A stretch of 64,000 nt of DNA, from positions 202,068-266,067 of the forward strand of contig QCNO01000001.1 of NCBI GenBank assembly GCA_003213165.1, given 5' to 3'. The notes under the pieces are model-generated. The model was not told where the DNA came from. It saw only the letters and a program-made list of their open reading frames with translations, and searched no databases. The stretch comes from OCS155 cluster bacterium AG-426-D23 (GTDB taxonomy: Bacteria > Actinomycetota > Acidimicrobiia > Actinomarinales > Actinomarinaceae). Shown here piece after piece: positions 28,795 to 54,587 of this stretch; position 1 is the stretch's first letter, and the number at the start of each line of letters is the position of its first letter. The translations under genes were made by a program, and so were the position numbers.

Positions 28795-29310
28795 TTAAAG
28801 ACCATGTATCACGTTTGTAACAACACCCCATACCTGTGCATCTGCATTTTCATTTAATATAATTGGTTCGAAATCATCATTTTCAGGTTGTAATATAATC
28901 TTAGAATTTTTCTTTATGTATCTTTTGACTGTTAGTTCACCATCAATGACTGCTATCACTACTTTTCCATTTTCTGCTTTTAGACTTCTGTCTACAACTA
29001 AGATATCATCTGGAAATATTCCCGCTCCTTTCATCGATTCTCCAGATGCTCTTACTAAAAATGTTGAAGCAGGATGCTTTATTAGGTACTGATTGAGATC
29101 TATTTTGTCTTCTAAATAGTCGTCTGCGGGAGAAGGAAATCCAGCAGCTACTTTATTGCTATATAATGGAATTTCATTAAGCCCTTTGCTAACTACCTCG
29201 GATACGTACTTAATTTTACTTACAGGAATTCTTAAGGCTTTTGTTTCCTCTCCATACTGACCTTGACCTTTGGGTCTACCAGCGCCTTTTCTTGCTCCAC
29301 CTCTTGGCAT
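28795..29310 (-). CDS. umuD: UmuD/LexA-family S24 peptidase with extra N-terminal RGG/AGRP segment
   Basis: Cleavage site VAAGFPSPA, catalytic GESM and LTVKR; N-terminus MPRGGARKGAGRPKG. ATG 29310 preferred to the track start at 29352. Confidence 0.88.
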   Translation of the reverse strand: MPRGGARKGAGRPKGQGQYGEETKALRIPVSKIKYVSEVVSKGLNEIPLYSNKVAAGFPSPADDYLEDKIDLNQYLIKHPASTFLVRASGESMKGAGIFPDDILVVDRSLKAENGKVVIAVIDGELTVKRYIKKNSKIILQPENDDFEPIILNENADAQVWGVVTNVIHGL

Positions 29311-29332
29311 AAAATGTCTTTCTTTTTTCTTA

Positions 29333-29350
29333 GAATAGTGTACAGTATTC
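29333..29350. promoter_or_regulatory. 18-bp palindrome in the umuD/umuC divergent intergenic region
   Basis: GAATAGTGTACAGTATTC; overlaps -10-like hexamers on both strands. Confidence 0.55.
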
Positions 29351-29364
29351 AAAGGAGTAAGTAA

Positions 29365-30630
29365 GTGAATAATAAAATTTTTGCCTTAGTGGACTGTAAT
29401 AATTTTTATGCTTCTTGTGAGAGGGTATTTAATCCGAAGTTAGAAGGAAAGCCTATCGTTGTGCTTTCCAACAATGACGGATGTGTAGTTGCTAGATCGA
29501 ATGAGGCGAAAGCTTTAGGCATACCAATGGGAGCTCCATACTTTAAATACAAACAACTTATTACAAGAAACAAAGTTCACGTTTTTTCATCAAACTATAC
29601 TTTTTATGGCGATATGTCAGCTAGAGTAATGACTTCACTAAAGTCTCTTGTAAGCGATATAGAAATCTACTCAATCGATGAAGCATTTCTTGATATCAGT
29701 AGTTTTTACTACTGCGACTTAGAAGAGACGGCTCAAGAGATACGAAGATTAATAAAACAGTGGACAGGGATTCCAGTTTCAATAGGTATAGGTCCAACAA
29801 AGACATTGGCAAAAGTAGCAAACAGACAAGCTAAAAAATACACAACATCTAATGTCTTTGATATACGAGATCAGAGTGTAAGAGACGAGATTTTAAAAAA
29901 GTTGCCACTTGAAGAGATATGGGGAATCTCAACAAGATGGGGAAGAAGGATTCGAAAGATTGGAATAAATACTGCTTATGATTTAACACAGGCAAATGCT
30001 CGTCATATCAGAAAAACTATCAGCATTGTAGGGGAGAGGATACATCATGAACTAAATGGCGTTTCCTGTATCGGTATAGAAGAAGTGAAGAATAAGAAAA
30101 ATATCATATCTTCTAAATCATTTGGTAGAAAAGTAATGTTAGTAAGTGAGTTAGAGGAAGCTGTTTCTAATTATGTTGTCAGAGCATGTGAGAAGTTAAG
30201 GGCACAGGGTTCTAGAGCACAAGGCTTGTATGTATTTTTGAGGACAAGTCCATTTGTCGATCCAGAGAAAAGATACAGTAACGGTATGAGTACATTTTTT
30301 TCAATACCAACAAGCAATACGTCAAAAATTATCAAAGAAGCGAAACATTTAACACGAAAACTCTTTGTGTACGGATATGAATACCAGAAAATTGGTGTAA
30401 TGCTGCTAGATATCACTGATGCAGAGAACGAACAGTATAGTTTTTACGAATATGAGAATTACGATCAATCCGACCGTGTTATGGAGGTACTGGACGGCGT
30501 TAATAGCAGGTATGGATCAAGCACATTGACATTGGGAGCACAGGGTATAAAAAAAGACTGGAGAATGAAGTCTGAAAGAAAGTCTGCTGCTTACACAACA
30601 AATATGCTTCAAATACCAGTTGTGAAGTAA
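29365..30630 (+). CDS. umuC: Y-family DNA polymerase V subunit UmuC
   Basis: [49 protein letters not shown]-terminal W.MKSERKS..YTT; SD AAGGAG. Confidence 0.95.
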
Positions 30631-30664: not shown

Positions 30665-31528
30665 ATGGTTTTAGAGAATCCATATGCACACTCACTAGAT
30701 GGTCTTGAAATAGAAGACCCTGTTCAAAGTTTTTTTGATTACTGCAAGAAACGTGAAGCTGTACGAGTAAAAAGGGAGGAAGGAGAAGAATATCCTTGGA
30801 GTGATGATCCAATTTTACAAAAAGGACGTTTTTTAAATGTTTTCAGAGAAGATGATAAAGTTAGTAAATCGATTATTAAATTTGCTGAACAAGCTAGAGA
30901 AGACTTACCTTTATTAATCCAAGCTTTATTTTTTAGTAGATGGTGCAATAGAGATTCAACTATTGATCAGTTAACGATAAATGATTTAGTTAATCCAGAA
31001 GCTTTAAAAGAGAAACTTCTTGGTTTGGAGCAATGGGAAAATTATACAGCTTACCCAGTGGAAGACTCTTTTTGGAATGAAAAGCGATATAAACGCATTG
31101 ATGCAGCAACACATAAATTTTATGAAATAAAAGAAGAGTTAGCTGAAGTAATTTTAGATTCTAATAAAGATGTTATTACCGCTACAAATAATGTGAACAA
31201 GCAATTTAAGATGAATAATGACTTTCCAATATTTATGGCATTAATTGATATTGCTTGGTTTAGAGAAGATGTCATACCAATAACCACTGATGTTCCTACT
31301 GGTATAGGGGCAGAACCATACTTGGATAGGCTCCAAAAATTTCTTAATTTAAATAGCCACCAAGAAGTGGGAAATAAGATGATAGAACTTCAAAATGAGT
31401 ATTGGCCTGATGCTAAAAGAGAGTTTTATCCTATTGACATAGAGTATCAATCTTGTGAATGCAGAAAATACTTTAGTTATGTGAATGGTACAAAAAAATT
31501 TGAAGGAAAAAATCTTTTTTCCTTGTGA
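30665..31528 (+). CDS. Homolog of the 5-hmdU DNA kinase helical domain (former aGPT-Pplase1 family), function unknown
   Basis: FF.YC..RE..R..RE.G..YPWSDDPILQ..RFLNVFREDD and C-terminal DIEYQSCECRKY match the family pattern as recalled; HMM not run. Confidence 0.62.
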   Translation: MVLENPYAHSLDGLEIEDPVQSFFDYCKKREAVRVKREEGEEYPWSDDPILQKGRFLNVFREDDKVSKSIIKFAEQAREDLPLLIQALFFSRWCNRDSTIDQLTINDLVNPEALKEKLLGLEQWENYTAYPVEDSFWNEKRYKRIDAATHKFYEIKEELAEVILDSNKDVITATNNVNKQFKMNNDFPIFMALIDIAWFREDVIPITTDVPTGIGAEPYLDRLQKFLNLNSHQEVGNKMIELQNEYWPDAKREFYPIDIEYQSCECRKYFSYVNGTKKFEGKNLFSL

Positions 31529-47891: not shown

Positions 47892-49085
47892 GTGAATATT
47901 GCACTTTTAAGCGTTGGAACTGAAATTTTACTTGGTGACACTATTAATACTAATCTTGCATCACTTGGACAAGCTTTATACAACAATGGTTTTATTCTCT
48001 CAACTGAAAAAACTGTTCCTGATGATAAAAAATTAATACAAGATGCTGTTAATGAATTACTTCAAAGTAATGATGTAATTATTACATGTGGAGGTATTGG
48101 ACCCACTGAAGATGACTTTACAAAAGAAGTTATCTCTGAAATGTTTAACTTAACACTTGTTGTTGACGAAGATCATCTGAGTTGGATGAAATCTAGATGG
48201 GAGAGTAGAGGAATGACTATGCCCGTAACAAACGTTAAGCAAGCAGAAATCCCAGCAGGTGCGACTAAATTAAACAACACAAACGGAACCTCACCAGGAA
48301 TTTATATTGAATACAAAAGTAAACATGTATTCATACTTCCAGGACCACCAAGAGAGTTCATACCGCTTGTAACAGATGAGTTAATACCATTTTTAAAAGA
48401 TAATTTTACAAAAGTTGAAAAAGATTATGAATTTATTTTATTTTTTAACGAAGCAGAGTCTGCTTTAGCTGAAAAAATTGACAAGTTTAAACCTAAAGGT
48501 TTAGATATTGCTTATTTAGCGAGCAGGGGAATAATTAAATTACGAATCGATAAAAATTCAGTCAGTGTTGATGCGTTGAAAGACTTTAAACATCTTATAA
48601 AAGAAACATTAAGTGACAATGTATTAAGTTATGAAAATATCCCTGCTTCGAAAGTTTTATTAAGAGAACTAAAAGCTAGGAATTATACAATATCAATAGT
48701 AGAGAGCATTACTGGGGGATTATTTTCTAAAGAGCTTGTTTCTCATCCAGGTGCAAGCAAAACACTACTTGCATCTAATGTTTTGTATTCTATGGATGCA
48801 AAAAAAGAACTATTAAATGCTGAACCTAACGAGGACTGGGCGCTACTCGCTGAAGAGTTAGCAGTTGCGTCTATGAAAAAATATAATTCTTCAGTCGGTT
48901 TAGCAGTATTGGGTGAAGCTGGTCCCGTTCCTTCGAGTAAATATAAAATAGGTCAAATATTTATATCCATCTGTATCAATGGTGAAATATCTAATTTCAC
49001 ACACAATTTACGTGGTAATAGGGAAGATATCATAAATAGAGCAGTAAATAACTGTATATGGGATCTATTAAATTTAATTAAATAG
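47892..49085 (+). CDS. cinA: CinA (MoCF-like domain plus NMN deamidase PncC domain)
   Basis: VGTEILLGDTINTN, GGIGPTEDD.T, LPGPPRE, VESITGG. Confidence 0.92.
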   Translation: MNIALLSVGTEILLGDTINTNLASLGQALYNNGFILSTEKTVPDDKKLIQDAVNELLQSNDVIITCGGIGPTEDDFTKEVISEMFNLTLVVDEDHLSWMKSRWESRGMTMPVTNVKQAEIPAGATKLNNTNGTSPGIYIEYKSKHVFILPGPPREFIPLVTDELIPFLKDNFTKVEKDYEFILFFNEAESALAEKIDKFKPKGLDIAYLASRGIIKLRIDKNSVSVDALKDFKHLIKETLSDNVLSYENIPASKVLLRELKARNYTISIVESITGGLFSKELVSHPGASKTLLASNVLYSMDAKKELLNAEPNEDWALLAEELAVASMKKYNSSVGLAVLGEAGPVPSSKYKIGQIFISICINGEISNFTHNLRGNREDIINRAVNNCIWDLLNLIK

Positions 49086-49091
49086 TTGTAT

Positions 49092-49107
49092 TCGAACAAA
49101 TGTTCGA
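49092..49107. promoter_or_regulatory. LexA (SOS) box upstream of recA
   Basis: TCGAACAAATGTTCGA is a perfect actinobacterial TCGAAC-N4-GTTCGA. Confidence 0.92.
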
Positions 49108-49172
49108 TTAAAATTTGTCATATAGAGATGTTTAAATAGTTATTAATTATTGTTAATAAATAGGAGAAAATA

Positions 49173-50225
49173 ATGGATAAAGACAGGGCAAAAAAACTTG
49201 ATACAGTTTTTTCGCAGATAGAAAAACAATTTGGTGAAGGCTCTTTGATGAAACTTGGATCTGACCAAGTCAGAAAGATACCTTCTATATCTACAGGAGC
49301 ACTATCAATAGACCTTGCATTAGGTATAGGTGGTGTGCCCAAGGGTAGAGTTATAGAAATTTATGGTCCTGAAAGCTCAGGTAAAACAACATTATCTTTA
49401 CACATTGCTGCAGAAGCTCAGAAAGCTGGTGGAGTAGCAGCATTTATTGATGCAGAACATGCTCTTGATCCGATCTATGCAAGCGCTCTTGGTGTTGATG
49501 TTGATGAATTACTTGTATCACAGCCTGATACAGGAGAACAAGCTCTAGAGATCGCAAATATGTTGATTGATTCCGAAGGTGTCGATGTAGTAGTTATTGA
49601 CTCTGTTGCAGCTTTAGTACCCCAAGCTGAGATTGATGGAGAGATGGGTCAATCCCATGTTGGATTACAGGCAAGATTAATGTCACAGGCGTTAAGAAAA
49701 CTAACATCATCTATCAATAAAACACAAACGACTGTTATATTTATCAATCAAATTAGAGAAAAAATTGGTGTTATGTGGGGTTCTCCTGAAACTACAAGTG
49801 GTGGTAGAGCACTTAAATTTTATGCATCAGTAAGAATTGATATTAGAAGAATTGAAACTCTTAAAATTGGAGCGGAAATGATTGGTAATCGCGTACGTGC
49901 AAAAATTGTAAAGAACAAGGTTGCACCACCATTTAAAGAAGCTCAATTTGATATTATGTTTGGTCAAGGAATTTCTAGAGAAGGTAGCTTGCTAGATGTA
50001 GGTGTAGATCATGGAATAGTTAGAAAAGCTGGTGCTTGGTTTACTTATGATGAGATTCAATTAGGACAAGGTAAGGAAAATTCTAAGAGATTTTTAAGAG
50101 AAAATGCTGATATTGCTTTGCAGTTAGAAACAGACGTGTACAAGGCAGTTGGCATGATTGAGTCTGATGATGCTACAGAAGAGGTAACTGTAGAAGATTC
50201 AGAGGATGCAACACCTGAAAAATAA
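49173..50225 (+). CDS. recA: Recombinase A
   Basis: [41 protein letters not shown]; no intein. Confidence 0.99.
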
Positions 50226-50263
50226 TATAGAGATTATTTAAAAAACAAATTTATAATTCAATT

Positions 50264-51640
50264 GTGGAACAAACAGTTGTAATTAAACCAAAAATGATTT
50301 TTACTCCTTCGCGTGAGGGTAAAAAGTATTTTGTTAAAACATTTGGTTGCCAAATGAATGAACATGATTCGGAAAAAATAGCAGGCCTGTTTGAACTAGA
50401 TGGTATGACAAAAGCAACCATTGAGGATTCTGCAGATATTATGTTTATCAATACATGCACAATTAGAGAAAATGCTGATGATAGGTTATATGGAACACTT
50501 GGACAGTTAAAAAAATGGAAAGATGAAGGAAACGATCGAAAGCTACTTGTAGGTGGATGTGCCGCACAGAAAGATAAAGAACTAGTTAGAAAGAGAGCTC
50601 CATGGGTAGATGTCGTAATTGGAACTCATAATTTAACCAATATCATTAATCTACTAAATCAATCTGAAGACTGGGGCCCAATCACTGAAATAATTGATGA
50701 GATAGAAGATCTTCCAACAGATGCACCTTCAATAAGAGAGTCTGAGCATTCTGCATGGTTAACAATTCAAATCGGTTGTAATAATTCTTGTACATTTTGT
50801 ATTGTTCCGTCTGTCAGAGGTCCAGAAATAAGTAGGAGGCCAAGTGACATCATCAATGAAGCACAGGAATTAGTAGAGTCAGGGATTAAAGAAATAACAT
50901 TATTAGGACAAAATGTAAATTCCTATGGTAGAGATTTAAAAATTGATAATAAAAGTAGGCCATACTTTGCTCAGTTGTTACATAAGCTTAATGGAATAGA
51001 CGGACTTGAAAGAATTCGTTTTACATCACCACATCCAAAAGATTTTAAAGAAGAAACTATAAATGCAGTCAAGTCACTAAGTAAAGTATGCAATCAGATA
51101 CACGTACCATTACAAAGTGGAAGTAGTGATATTCTTTCAAAGATGCATCGTGGATACAATAAGGAAAAATTTTTACAAAAAGTTGACATGATTAGAGGCA
51201 TTATTCCAGATGTTTCATTAACAACAGATATAATAGTTGGCTTTCCTGGTGAAACTGATGATGATTTTCAAGACACTATGGACATTGTAAAATATGTTGA
51301 ATTTGACTCCGTATATATGTTTCAATTTTCACCAAGACCAGGTACAAAGGCATATGATATGCAGGATGAATTTGTTGACCAAGATATTATTAAAAAAAGA
51401 TTTCAACACTTAAAAGACGTCCAGACAAATATTAGTGAAAAAAGATTGAATAGATTTGTTGGAACGAATCAACTTTTGTTAATTGAAAAACCTTCGAAAA
51501 AAAATAACATGGTTCTAACAGGCAAAATTGATAGTGGTCAGATTACACACATTGACAAAAAGAATGTTTCTATTGGGGATATTGTTCAAGTTAGAATTAC
51601 TGACTCAACACCTTTCTATTTAAAAGCAGAATTAATTTAG
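50264..51640 (+). CDS. miaB: tRNA-2-methylthio-N6-dimethylallyladenosine synthase
   Basis: TFGCQMNEHDS, radical SAM GCNNSCTFC, DIIVGFPGET, TRAM-like C-terminus. Confidence 0.96.
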   Translation: MEQTVVIKPKMIFTPSREGKKYFVKTFGCQMNEHDSEKIAGLFELDGMTKATIEDSADIMFINTCTIRENADDRLYGTLGQLKKWKDEGNDRKLLVGGCAAQKDKELVRKRAPWVDVVIGTHNLTNIINLLNQSEDWGPITEIIDEIEDLPTDAPSIRESEHSAWLTIQIGCNNSCTFCIVPSVRGPEISRRPSDIINEAQELVESGIKEITLLGQNVNSYGRDLKIDNKSRPYFAQLLHKLNGIDGLERIRFTSPHPKDFKEETINAVKSLSKVCNQIHVPLQSGSSDILSKMHRGYNKEKFLQKVDMIRGIIPDVSLTTDIIVGFPGETDDDFQDTMDIVKYVEFDSVYMFQFSPRPGTKAYDMQDEFVDQDIIKKRFQHLKDVQTNISEKRLNRFVGTNQLLLIEKPSKKNNMVLTGKIDSGQITHIDKKNVSIGDIVQVRITDSTPFYLKAELI

Positions 51641-51641
51641 T

Positions 51642-52466
51642 TTGTTATATTTTCTCACAGGCATAACAGCATCTGGAAAGTCGGATTTAGCACACAAAAT
51701 TGCTATTGAAAATAATATGTCCATCCTCTCAGTTGATTCTATGGCTGTCTACAAAGGTCTAGATGTGTTGACTGCAAAGCCATCTGACGTAATGCAAGCT
51801 CAAGTAAAATATTACGGTTTAGACATTGCAGATTGTGATCAGAATTTTTCAATAATTGATTATTTAAATTATCTTATTGATCATGATATCCCAGAAAAAT
51901 CTTTTAAAGAGGATATATTAGCTGTTGGAGGTTCTGGATTATACGTTAAAGCAATAATTGATAGGTATGAGTTTAAACCAACCGACCCAACAATAAGATC
52001 GGAATTAGAACAATTAAATTTTGATCAATTATTGAAATTTCATGATCTTAATGGGATACCAATTCCTGATATGGAATTAAATAAAAGGAGATTAATGAGA
52101 AATATTGAAAGCTTTATGTTGGAGGAATCCAAGTATGTTTTTCCAGAAGTAAATCTGCCTTTAGATAAAGTTGGCATTTTTTGGAATCATCCTAATCATA
52201 AGAATAATATTGAAATTAGAACCAAGAAAATGATTGATAATGGTTTGGTAGAAGAAATAAACAAAATTAACAATCCATCTAAAACAGTTCTTCAAGCTAT
52301 TGGAATGAATTTATCTGATAATCTTGAAGAAAATATAAATATAAAAACAAAAAGATTAGCTAAAAAACAAATTACTTGGTTTAAAAAAGAACCAAAATTA
52401 CATATGATTGAAACAGATAACCAAGACCTTGTATACAATTCAATGATGGAGATTATTAATGGCTAA
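51642..52466 (+). CDS. miaA: tRNA dimethylallyltransferase (compact)
   Basis: GITASGKS, SVDSMAVYKGLDV.TAKP, VGGSGLY, LAKKQITWF. Confidence 0.9.
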   Translation: MLYFLTGITASGKSDLAHKIAIENNMSILSVDSMAVYKGLDVLTAKPSDVMQAQVKYYGLDIADCDQNFSIIDYLNYLIDHDIPEKSFKEDILAVGGSGLYVKAIIDRYEFKPTDPTIRSELEQLNFDQLLKFHDLNGIPIPDMELNKRRLMRNIESFMLEESKYVFPEVNLPLDKVGIFWNHPNHKNNIEIRTKKMIDNGLVEEINKINNPSKTVLQAIGMNLSDNLEENINIKTKRLAKKQITWFKKEPKLHMIETDNQDLVYNSMMEIING

Positions 52467-53193
52467 TTTTGCTTACATGTCTGGAACAGGAAATGATTTT
52501 ATAGTTGGTAAGTATGAAGGGGAAGTTTCTGAAATTCAAATTATTGCACTTGTCAGTGATGCAGAATACGAAGTAGATGGAGTTATATTTGTTGAACCAT
52601 TAAAAAATAATTCTGTAAAAATGCATTATTACAATAATGATGGTTCTGATGCAGAGCTTTGCGTAAACGGTGTACGATGTGTTGCTAAATACGCACTCGA
52701 CAATAATTATTTAAGTGCTGTGAGATTTACTGTTAAAACACCGGTTGGGAACTTAGATGTATATGTCGATGACAATATAGTTGAAGTATCAACTCCTATT
52801 CCTTCCTATGAAGAAGAAAAAATTAATGTAAATATTTATGAAGGTGTAAAATCTTCAATTGGCAATCCTCATTTTATGATAGAAGTAGATAATGTAGACG
52901 TAATAGATTTAGAAAAATTGAATGCTGAAATAGTTAATGAAAAATTATTCCCAGATGGTGTAAATGTTGAAATATATCAAATAGTTAATAGAAATTATAT
53001 TAAAGCTAGAGTCTTCGAAAGAGGAGTAGGTGAGACAGATGCTTGTGGATCAGGCGCTCTATGCATATTTAACTATCTAAATAAAACAGATCAAATAGAT
53101 AATAATTCTTATGTAATGTACCCAGGTGGTGACTTAAATCTAAGATTTGAAAATAATAATTTATATTTATTAGGAGAAGTTAGATATCTCTAA
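52459..53193 (+). CDS. dapF: Diaminopimelate epimerase
   Basis: GTGNDF, DGS.AELCVNG.RC, GNPH, GVNVE, ERGVGETDACGSG. Confidence 0.95.
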   Translation: MANFAYMSGTGNDFIVGKYEGEVSEIQIIALVSDAEYEVDGVIFVEPLKNNSVKMHYYNNDGSDAELCVNGVRCVAKYALDNNYLSAVRFTVKTPVGNLDVYVDDNIVEVSTPIPSYEEEKINVNIYEGVKSSIGNPHFMIEVDNVDVIDLEKLNAEIVNEKLFPDGVNVEIYQIVNRNYIKARVFERGVGETDACGSGALCIFNYLNKTDQIDNNSYVMYPGGDLNLRFENNNLYLLGEVRYL

Positions 53194-53770
53194 ATAAACT
53201 AACCACTTTGCCAATAGGCTGTATATTCGAATTAATTTCTTGATTATTGTAATTTTTATTTGCTGGTATCAAATATCTTTTGCCTGAAATTGTATCTAAA
53301 TATTTAACAGTTGCTTCTGTATCATTTATCATAAATGCACCAATATCACCATTTTTTGGCTCAACTCCTTTATCAATAACAACAATATCTCCATCATGAA
53401 TTCCAGCATCCAGCATTGAATCTCCATTAACTTTTAATGCAAATAGATTTTGATTAAATTTTTCTTGTGGGACAGATATTTCTCCAATTTTATTTTCTTC
53501 AGCTAATAATGGTGAACCAGCTGCAATTTCACCAACAATAGGCACTGTTTTAAAACTCGTGATTATTTTATTACTTGTTAACGTCCTTGGTTGATTAGCT
53601 TTTTTACTTAATAGACCCTTTTCAATTAAATTATTTAGATGATGATGAACAGAACTTGTTGATTTGAGATTAACTTTTTCAGCAATTTCTCTAATCGAAG
53701 GGGAGTAACCTTCATTTTCTATCTTATATTGTATAAATTCCAATATTTCTGTTTGTTTATTTAATTTCAT
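53180..53770 (-). CDS. lexA: SOS repressor LexA
   Basis: GYSPSIREIA wHTH, IAAGSP cleavage site, GDSM, ATVK. Confidence 0.96.
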   Translation of the reverse strand: MKLNKQTEILEFIQYKIENEGYSPSIREIAEKVNLKSTSSVHHHLNNLIEKGLLSKKANQPRTLTSNKIITSFKTVPIVGEIAAGSPLLAEENKIGEISVPQEKFNQNLFALKVNGDSMLDAGIHDGDIVVIDKGVEPKNGDIGAFMINDTEATVKYLDTISGKRYLIPANKNYNNQEINSNIQPIGKVVSLFRDI

Positions 53771-53789
53771 ATTGAATTATATCATAAAT

Positions 53790-53805
53790 TAGAACAAATG
53801 TTCGA
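53790..53805. promoter_or_regulatory. LexA (SOS) box between divergent lexA and LysM gene
   Basis: TAGAACAAATGTTCGA, same core as the recA box. Confidence 0.88.
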
Positions 53806-53840
53806 AAAAAAATGTCATACACGATTATTAAAATCAAAAT

Positions 53841-54113
53841 ATGAAAAATTTTATAAAACTTTTTGTAATTATGTATTTTTTAAGTGGCTTTGTCTCATAC
53901 CATGTAAAAAAACCTTTGAATTCAGATATCTTAAATCATGAAATTTCATTAATTCACTACAAAATCCGATCAGGTGATACATTATGGGGAATTGCTGATA
54001 ATTTTAATCCATCAAATAAAGAAAGTTTTATAAAAAAACTAATGGTAATAAACAATTTGGATTCTTATCTATTAGAAGTTAACAAAATTATAGTTATTCC
54101 AAAAAATATTTGA
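53841..54113 (+). CDS. TM-LysM protein, YneA/ChiZ-like SOS division inhibitor candidate
   Basis: N-terminal hydrophobic segment plus YKIRSGDTLWGIA LysM; lexA/LysM/nrdR synteny as for mycobacterial chiZ. Confidence 0.72.
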   Translation: MKNFIKLFVIMYFLSGFVSYHVKKPLNSDILNHEISLIHYKIRSGDTLWGIADNFNPSNKESFIKKLMVINNLDSYLLEVNKIIVIPKNI

Positions 54114-54156
54114 TACTATATTTAGGAGTTATTATAATTGATACTATATATGGTAT
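54113..54156. promoter_or_regulatory. Two tandem NrdR-box-like sites
   Basis: ATACTATATTTAGGAG (54113-28) and ATACTATATATGGTAT (54141-56) versus consensus acaCwAtATaTwGtgt. Confidence 0.5.
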
Positions 54157-54587
54157 GTCCTTATTGCAATAAGCAAGAAACAAATGTTGTAGATTCTAGA
54201 AAAAATAATGAAGGTAACTCTATTCGTAGAAGAAGAGAGTGTCCAAAGTGTAATTTAAGATTTACTACTTATGAAAAGGCAGAAATCGGTTTGTTTGTTC
54301 AGAAAAGAAGCGGTGAATTGCAAGAATTTAACTACGAAAAATTGTATAAGGGTATAGAAAATGCATTTGGTGGACTAGATTTGAATGAAAAACAGCTAAA
54401 AACTCTTGTTGATAACATTTTTATTGATATAAAAGAAAAAGGTGCAAAAGTTAAAAGTGAATTTATTGGAGAAACTGTATTAAATCACCTTAAGGAGATA
54501 AATAAAGTTGCATATTTAAGATTTGCATCAGTATATAAAGAATTTTCAGATGCATCTGATTTTGAAAAAGAGGTTGCTGAACTATAA
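54150..54587 (+). CDS. nrdR: Transcriptional repressor NrdR
   Basis: CPYC...VVDSR..IRRRRECPKC..RFTTYE, ATP cone, AYLRFASVY. Confidence 0.96.
   Translation: MVCPYCNKQETNVVDSRKNNEGNSIRRRRECPKCNLRFTTYEKAEIGLFVQKRSGELQEFNYEKLYKGIENAFGGLDLNEKQLKTLVDNIFIDIKEKGAKVKSEFIGETVLNHLKEINKVAYLRFASVYKEFSDASDFEKEVAEL

Follow-up and report, generated by a model that had tools for sequence, protein, structure and literature searches.

A umuD-umuC locus of Actinomarina with a UmuDAb-like UmuD and a putative operator of its own

By the textbook rule, umuDC genes for the error-prone polymerase Pol V (DNA polymerase V) are controlled by LexA. A different arrangement has been described in Acinetobacter baylyi and A. 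baumannii, where UmuDAb (ACIAD2729 and A1S_1389) cleaves itself and represses error-prone polymerase genes independently of LexA. For UmuDAb it has been demonstrated that the N-terminal domain represses, that the protein binds its operator and that cleavage depends on RecA (PMC11332147, PMC4807011). The protein has been treated as peculiar to Acinetobacter or the Moraxellaceae, with an N-terminus modelled as a LexA-like helix-turn-helix (PMC13010146, PMC8565304), and we found no mention of homologues outside these groups in the literature searched. Here we describe a umuD-umuC locus in a 64-kb stretch of the genome of OCS155 cluster bacterium AG-426-D23, a marine actinobacterium of the Actinomarina lineage; we refer to this whole stretch as the window. 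Its UmuD carries an N-terminal head homologous to that of UmuDAb, and between umuD and umuC lies a palindrome that resembles the UmuDAb operator. Comparison across phyla indicates that the locus is probably a self-contained, LexA-independent and RecA-dependent switch for Pol V that belongs to the UmuDAb family. The self-repressing design is already known; what is new, judging from these comparisons, is its breadth, which reaches far beyond what the literature says.

Two other kinds of system provide points of reference. HdiR of Streptococcaceae and the non-canonical LexA of Bacteroidetes (PMC8565304) are likewise self-cleaving S24 repressors of error-prone polymerases, but they use a helix-turn-helix of the phage-repressor type and other motifs, whereas the window protein combines a true UmuD C-domain with a head that has no known family. 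The canonical LexA-regulated umuDC of Escherichia coli and many other bacteria has UmuD and UmuC in common with the window locus and, as far as sequence can predict, also RecA-stimulated cleavage of UmuD and damage-inducible expression. Unlike the canonical system, the window locus has no LexA box, its genes are divergent, and its UmuD has a predicted DNA-binding head and a putative operator of its own.

A UmuD with a UmuDAb-type head

The two genes point away from each other, umuD at 28795-29310 on the minus strand (171 amino acids, ATG at 29310) and umuC at 29365-30630 on the plus strand (421 amino acids, GTG start). Open reading frame (ORF) coordinates thus bear out the divergent arrangement over 54 bp that an earlier note on this DNA had pointed out. 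UmuD matches Peptidase_S24 (PF00717) at 5e-32 and scores 166 bits against the NCBIfam model of the Pol V autoproteolytic subunit (NF007621, cut-off 110). UmuC contains the Pfam domains IMS, IMS_C and DUF4113 (PF00817, PF11799, PF13438) and, at 426 bits, falls slightly below the cut-off of 431 for NF002955; we annotate it as the Y-family catalytic subunit of Pol V. In this genome (964 kb, about 33% G+C, 86% complete), the protein is the sole UmuD and UmuC the sole Y-family polymerase encoded.

The C-terminal part of the protein is that of a UmuD. The predicted autocleavage site, Ala56-Gly57 between VAA and GFPSPADD (29140-29145, minus strand), is invariant or nearly so in our alignments. Both members of the catalytic Ser/Lys dyad are intact, as is the Ala-Gly site named in the earlier note: Ser92 (in GESM; 29035-29037, minus strand) is invariant in all alignments, and Lys129 (in TVKR; 28924-28926, minus strand) is invariant among 16 sequences and nearly so, at 90% or more, in the 22- and 79-sequence alignments. 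In an AlphaFold2 model based on 79 sequences, the UmuD'-like core is confidently predicted. The best match of the C-domain model in the PDB is E. coli UmuD' (1UMU; template modelling score 0.90, 43% identity), and it fits UmuD' better than LexA. The C-domain of UmuDAb, too, is a UmuD-like S24 domain in which an Ala-Gly site and a Ser/Lys dyad are present, and A83-G84 of UmuDAb corresponds to Ala56-Gly57 here (PMC4807011).

Fifty-six residues precede the cleavage site in the window protein. For E. coli UmuD this number is 24, which gives an extension of 32 residues; the extension noted earlier is thus present, and the earlier estimate of about 40 extra residues was slightly high. The head itself (residues 1-47; 29170-29310, minus strand) consists of a basic, Gly-rich arm, MPRGGARKGAGRPKGQGQYG, an extended segment, E21-TKALRIP-29, and a helix at residues 30-42. 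Across 79 sequences, seven residues of the head (G4, G5, R7, G11, R12, E21 and P29) do not vary.

The resemblance to UmuDAb, which had been proposed as an analogy, proved to be stronger than that. A profile built from residues 1-56 of 11 family members outside Acinetobacter matches the N-terminus of A. baylyi UmuDAb (MSQQNKNEHGGARTNAGRKAKYQEPTKVIRVPESQVAFIKRW..., as printed in mutagenic primers and S3 Fig of PMC4807011) with 34.3 bits (E 1e-12), whereas 1000 shuffled sequences peak at 6.8 bits; the two heads are homologous. In the alignment, UmuDAb E24 pairs with the family-invariant E21, and UmuDAb K40 and R41 fall in the single helix. These are residues of known effect, as E24K derepresses both ddrR and umuDAb and exchange of K40/R41 for proline causes derepression too. 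On the strength of the profile match and of these aligned positions, the window UmuD is, by sequence, a member of the UmuDAb family. The two proteins share a head of the form HGGARxxAGR...EPTKxIRVPES followed by a helix. They differ in length (203 amino acids in UmuDAb, 171 here) and in the number of residues ahead of the cleavage site (83 versus 56), so that the window UmuD is almost linkerless. UmuDAb also has six more residues before the GG motif, and the arm of the window protein is three residues longer.

Searches with the head point to a large family. The profile retrieves 891 clusters (E <= 0.001) from 1.84 billion representative proteins. These comprise 171-residue forms like the one in the window, forms of about 200-217 residues with a longer linker, some short proteins, and proteins with other C-termini; the longer-linker forms include proteins of Rickettsiaceae and Limnothrix labelled 'LexA family protein'. 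A word-based search with residues 1-48 matched Legionella and no Acinetobacter.

What kind of DNA-binding domain the head would be is a separate question. We found no significant match to it in Pfam, PHROGs or PDB sequences, and the N-terminal domain of E. coli LexA does not match the head profile. In the 79-sequence AlphaFold2 model, residues 1-20 form a disordered arm, 21-29 are extended and 30-42 form a single helix, with a mean predicted local distance difference test score (pLDDT) of about 78-80 for the residue blocks 21-30 and 31-40; a monomer model from 16 sequences gave the N-terminal domain at low confidence. The earlier suggestion of a ribbon-helix-helix is not confirmed, as one helix only is predicted, no ribbon-helix-helix model of Pfam matches even at E up to 5, and the PDB search gave no match; strands may still pair in a ribbon-like way in a dimer. 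As an analogy of fold, the x-R-x-P-x-S stretch and following helix do recall the strand and first helix of Arc, MetJ and CopG, from which the head differs by its single predicted helix. The AT-hook comparison made earlier is partly apt: a GRP core lies between basic residues, but the canonical RGRP is absent and the sequence reads GAGRPKG. A three-helix winged helix-turn-helix of the LexA type is likewise not what the model shows, with about 47 residues and one predicted helix at moderate model confidence. The predictions support neither a complete ribbon-helix-helix nor a three-helix LexA-like fold, and the head would be a so far unclassified type of DNA-binding domain.

The putative operator and its association with the head

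The divergent control region (29311-29364) is 54 bp long and contains candidate promoters as well as the umuC ribosome-binding site AAGGAG (29352-29357, plus strand). The palindrome reported earlier, GAATAGTGTACAGTATTC, is indeed found at 29333-29350, and 16 of its 18 positions are symmetric. It forms the inner part of a putative 22-bp operator, TAGAATAGTGTACAGTATTCAA (29331-29352; TAGA-ATAGT-GTAC-AGTAT-TCAA), with a GTAC core at 29340-29343. Read on the umuD strand, TTGAATACTGTACACTATTCTA, this is TTGA-N5-GTAC-N5-TCTA. The UmuDAb operator is 21 bp long, TTGA-N4-GTWAC-N4-TCAA, and its core outweighs either arm (PMC11332147). Thus the promoter region of the window umuD, like that of umuDAb, contains a palindrome whose arms are of the TTGA/TCAA type and whose core is GT(W)AC, in this case with an even core, one more spacer base per half-site and one deviating arm base. 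In Acinetobacter, one operator serves the divergent promoters of umuDAb and ddrR, and here one operator would serve those of umuD and umuC. The -10-like hexamers that the earlier note listed on both strands all lie inside the 22-bp site: TAGAAT (29331-36) and TACAGT (29341-46) on the plus strand, TATTCT and TACACT on the minus strand.

Scored with a weight matrix made from seven sites upstream of head-bearing umuD genes, the 22-bp site reaches 27.3 bits and is single in the 964-kb genome, the runner-up having 14.6 bits. A regulon confined to error-prone polymerase genes would be a further likeness to UmuDAb. Weak secondary matches of 12.7-14.6 bits, at C3:96781, C6:35479 and C8:18003, are regarded as chance.

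Conservation within Actinomarina is strong. The 22-bp site is identical in 51 of 53 copies (52 other Actinomarina loci and the window), with one substitution in each of the two remaining loci. Between Actinomarina lineages the gap is 86-96% identical while third codon positions of umuD are 46-53% identical, and therefore the gap is under strong purifying selection. This conservation covers the whole gap, beyond the palindrome alone. In every one of the 52 other loci that reach far enough upstream, umuD and umuC stand head to head, with a gap of 54-59 bp.

Outside Actinomarina, the same kind of site accompanies the same kind of head. Relatives with 51-64% identity over the full length, N-terminus included, occur in gammaproteobacterial metagenome-assembled genomes (MAGs), a Coxiellaceae MAG, the chromosome of Legionella antarctica and marine Pseudomonadota. 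Just upstream of their umuD genes lie the palindromes TTGATTATTGTACTTTATTCAA, TTGATTATGGTACGATATTCAA, TTAATTAGTGTACACTAATCAA and TTGAATAGTGTACATTATTCAA, and in L. antarctica the variant TGATTATTGCACCGATAATCA. The expectation that the palindrome is retained at orthologous loci is thus borne out, both in Actinomarina and, as similar sites, at head-bearing umuD genes of other phyla. Legionella plasmids, pLPL of strain Lens among them, also carry a head-bearing umuD-umuC operon behind such a site. By contrast, the weight matrix finds nothing above 10.7 bits at 22 loci with an ordinary short UmuD.

An independent set of 80 metagenome loci was examined with the template TTGA-N5-GT(W)AC-N5-TCAA, a site being counted when 10 or more of the 12 template positions matched within 150 bp upstream. 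The site precedes 20 of 26 head-bearing genes versus 2 of 36 headless ones (Fisher p = 4e-9), a co-occurrence that provides comparative support for sequence-specific binding and repression. The sites fall into a 22-bp class built around GTAC and a 23-bp class built around GTWAC, and these two classes track protein subclades (L096, L098 and L108-L111 versus the rest). Two loci, L105 and L114, encode an arm three residues shorter, like that of UmuDAb; L105 has a GTAAC-core site with uneven spacers and in L114 no site was found. There are hints in these sequences that arm length and site spacing co-vary. A scan of 401 genomes at class level with the A. baylyi operator pattern gave no match.

The divergent layout is peculiar to Actinomarina. 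Because umuC lies downstream of head-bearing umuD, in the same orientation, in nearly all loci of other lineages, where the two form an operon, the divergence is a local rearrangement that left a single operator between umuD and umuC.

LexA has its own sites in the window. Boxes of the Cheo type, GAACAAATGTTC, lie at 49094-49105, 68 bp upstream of recA (49173-50225), and at 53792-53803, 22 bp upstream of lexA (53180-53770, minus strand; 168 bits against the family model, above its cut-off). These are the only two exact occurrences of GAAC-N4-GTTC in the 64 kb. The gap contains no such box, and between 29150 and 29500 there is one site with two mismatches, inside the umuD coding sequence and at chance level. 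The earlier observation that recA and lexA have the LexA box while umuD-umuC lacks it is therefore correct, the promoter region of a LexA-regulated umuDC is not what is found here, and we reject control of umuD-umuC by LexA, there being no Cheo box in or near the gap. The head-bearing module occurs together with a full-length LexA in this genome and in one gammaproteobacterial genome (G002); it is also present in L. antarctica and two further genomes (G003, G004), in which full-length LexA was not found, as far as the assemblies show. Because the module occurs both with and without full-length LexA, the site follows the head and not the host LexA.

A proposed switch and its alternatives

We suggest the following mechanism. 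Uncleaved UmuD dimers would bind the single 22-bp operator through their N-terminal heads. The conserved E-x-TK-x-x-R-x-P-x-S stretch and the next helix may read the GTAC core, and the Gly/Arg-rich GRP arm may reach the A/T-rich flanks and the TTGA and TCTA arms. Since the candidate -10 hexamers of the two divergent promoters lie within the operator, repression would act on umuD and umuC at once. When DNA is damaged, RecA filaments would stimulate self-cleavage at Ala56-Gly57 by Ser92 and Lys129; the cleavage and catalytic residues are intact and recA is present. Cleavage would free the head, lift repression and open both promoters, leaving a UmuD'-like core. Since the genome encodes no other UmuD and no other Y-family polymerase, this core probably joins UmuC. 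That the window UmuD acts as a repressor we consider likely; that it additionally serves as a Pol V subunit we favour with less assurance.

Several observations weigh against this proposal. The right arm of the site is TCTA, where the UmuDAb operator has TCAA, and the distance from arm to core is off by one base per half-site. A sigma-70 scan found no -35/-10 pair in the gap; because of this we infer the promoter positions from the hexamers within the site, which count only as candidates of the actinobacterial TANNNT style. Full repression by UmuDAb requires the co-repressor DdrR (PMC11332147), and a DdrR-like partner is not evident at the window locus, where the divergent neighbour is umuC and not a small ddrR-like gene. 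In E. coli, UmuDAb itself fails to serve as a subunit of Pol V (PMC4807011). Model confidence is low in the arm (residues 1-20) and moderate in residues 21-42, and the model is a monomer, so that the mode of DNA binding is a guess. The case for the window UmuD is comparative throughout, and we infer its DNA binding, repression, RecA-induced cleavage and dual role on that basis.

The difficulty with the polymerase subunit leads to an alternative in which the head-bearing UmuD, like UmuDAb, is purely regulatory. It would repress umuC and its own gene, its cleaved core would not be a UmuD' subunit, and UmuC would act by itself or with a different partner. In A. baumannii, a umuDAb null mutant retained induced mutagenesis (PMC4807011), as this alternative would predict. 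Acinetobacter, however, has extra, ordinary UmuDs and this genome has none; the protein described here is its only UmuD and UmuC its only Y-family polymerase. Moreover, the C-domain exceeds the cut-off for the Pol V subunit (166 bits against 110) and resembles UmuD' more than LexA, and almost all other family members keep the classical umuD-umuC operon. We consider the pure regulator unlikely for the window locus, which also departs from the Acinetobacter system in that its host is a member of the Actinomycetota with a streamlined marine genome that keeps a canonical LexA.

Two further explanations would dispense with repression by UmuD. The palindrome could be bound by LexA or another host regulator, the extension serving, for example, to tether Pol V to DNA without specificity through its AT-hook-like arm. 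A lexA gene is present, LexA control is the general rule for umuDC, and the GRP arm by itself would bind A/T-rich DNA without sequence specificity. Yet the Cheo box is absent from the gap, and the palindrome tracks the head across phyla that have different LexA motifs or in which no full-length LexA was found, while it is missing at loci with a short UmuD, both by the matrix and in the metagenome set; we regard this explanation as very improbable. Alternatively, the conserved gap may merely accommodate two overlapping divergent promoters and a ribosome-binding site in 54 bp, with no operator. This would account for conservation along the entire gap and for the TANNNT hexamers inside the palindrome. 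It fares poorly with the same palindrome upstream of co-oriented umuD-umuC operons, where there is no divergent promoter, and with the retention of the symmetry and of the GTAC or GTWAC core while spacer bases vary, and we give it hardly any credence.

Range of the cassette and neighbouring genes

Head and operator of this type are shared commonly by many phyla and by Legionella plasmids. This raises the possibility, which we hold in even balance, that the UmuDAb design did not originate in Acinetobacter. It may instead be a derived member of an old, portable cassette made up of an unclassified head of about 45 residues with predicted DNA binding, a true UmuD core and a TTGA..GT(W)AC..TCAA operator. 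Such a cassette would have spread with umuC or dinB, its basic form being bifunctional and parallel to LexA. If so, its range would include at least Actinomycetota, Gammaproteobacteria (Legionella chromosomes and plasmids, Coxiellaceae), other marine Pseudomonadota, Rickettsiaceae and cyanobacteria. In the basic form, to which the window locus would belong, a single polypeptide would repress Pol V and, after cleavage, serve as its subunit, and this UmuD switch would operate side by side with LexA. The window locus would exemplify how a damage-inducible circuit can bypass LexA even though the organism still possesses it.

Actinomarina rank with the most abundant bacteria in sunlit ocean waters, and in their genome of about 1 Mb the cassette is the one translesion polymerase retained. 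The short forms of 171 residues are a minimal system for studying DNA recognition by the head, and they allow a natural test of whether the roles of repressor and polymerase subunit can reside in a single protein. The operator, in turn, is a ready motif for annotating such cassettes and reveals umuD gene calls that translate it as an N-terminal extension. Some public umuD calls start at an upstream TTG or ATG (29311-29352, minus strand) and so run through the operator, which then appears as ...NTVHYSK... or ...NNVHYSK... in false products of 185-194 amino acids (P0067, P0087, P0104); the recurrent peptide VHYSK is translated operator.

On plasmids, a tblastn search with the head found Legionella, Fluoribacter and Bradyrhizobium only. 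The Legionella plasmids with the cassette are pTUM19329-1, pLPL and an unnamed plasmid (L089, L090, L091), and some are conjugative or mobilizable. On pLPL, a gene for an SOS-response-associated peptidase lies directly upstream of the cassette. In L. antarctica the cassette is present twice, once on the chromosome and once on a plasmid, and the two sites are nearly identical.

The gene that follows the head-bearing umuD also varies. In two gammaproteobacterial MAGs, one of them labelled Coxiellaceae, a DinB-type Pol IV (DNA polymerase IV; NF002677, 471 bits) takes the place of UmuC (L056:3482-4555 and L058:3497-4540), an unusual pairing. On a marine metagenome contig, a gene for a DCC1-like thiol-disulfide oxidoreductase (L082:4526-4912) lies between head-bearing umuD and umuC.

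In the window, the SOS neighbourhood (47892-54587) is typically actinobacterial, with a cinA-like gene, recA, miaB, miaA, dapF and lexA; no recX ORF is visible between recA and miaB. Beyond lexA lie a divergent, small LysM-like ORF and then nrdR. Downstream of umuC, after 34 bp and in the same orientation, there is an ORF of 287 amino acids (30665-31528, plus strand) that matches the Pfam family HMUDK_hel, the helical domain of 5-hydroxymethyl-dU DNA kinase, at 1e-17 and may be co-transcribed with umuC. This ORF follows umuC in about half of the Actinomarina loci, which form one subclade; elsewhere a gene for an MFS transporter adjoins umuC.

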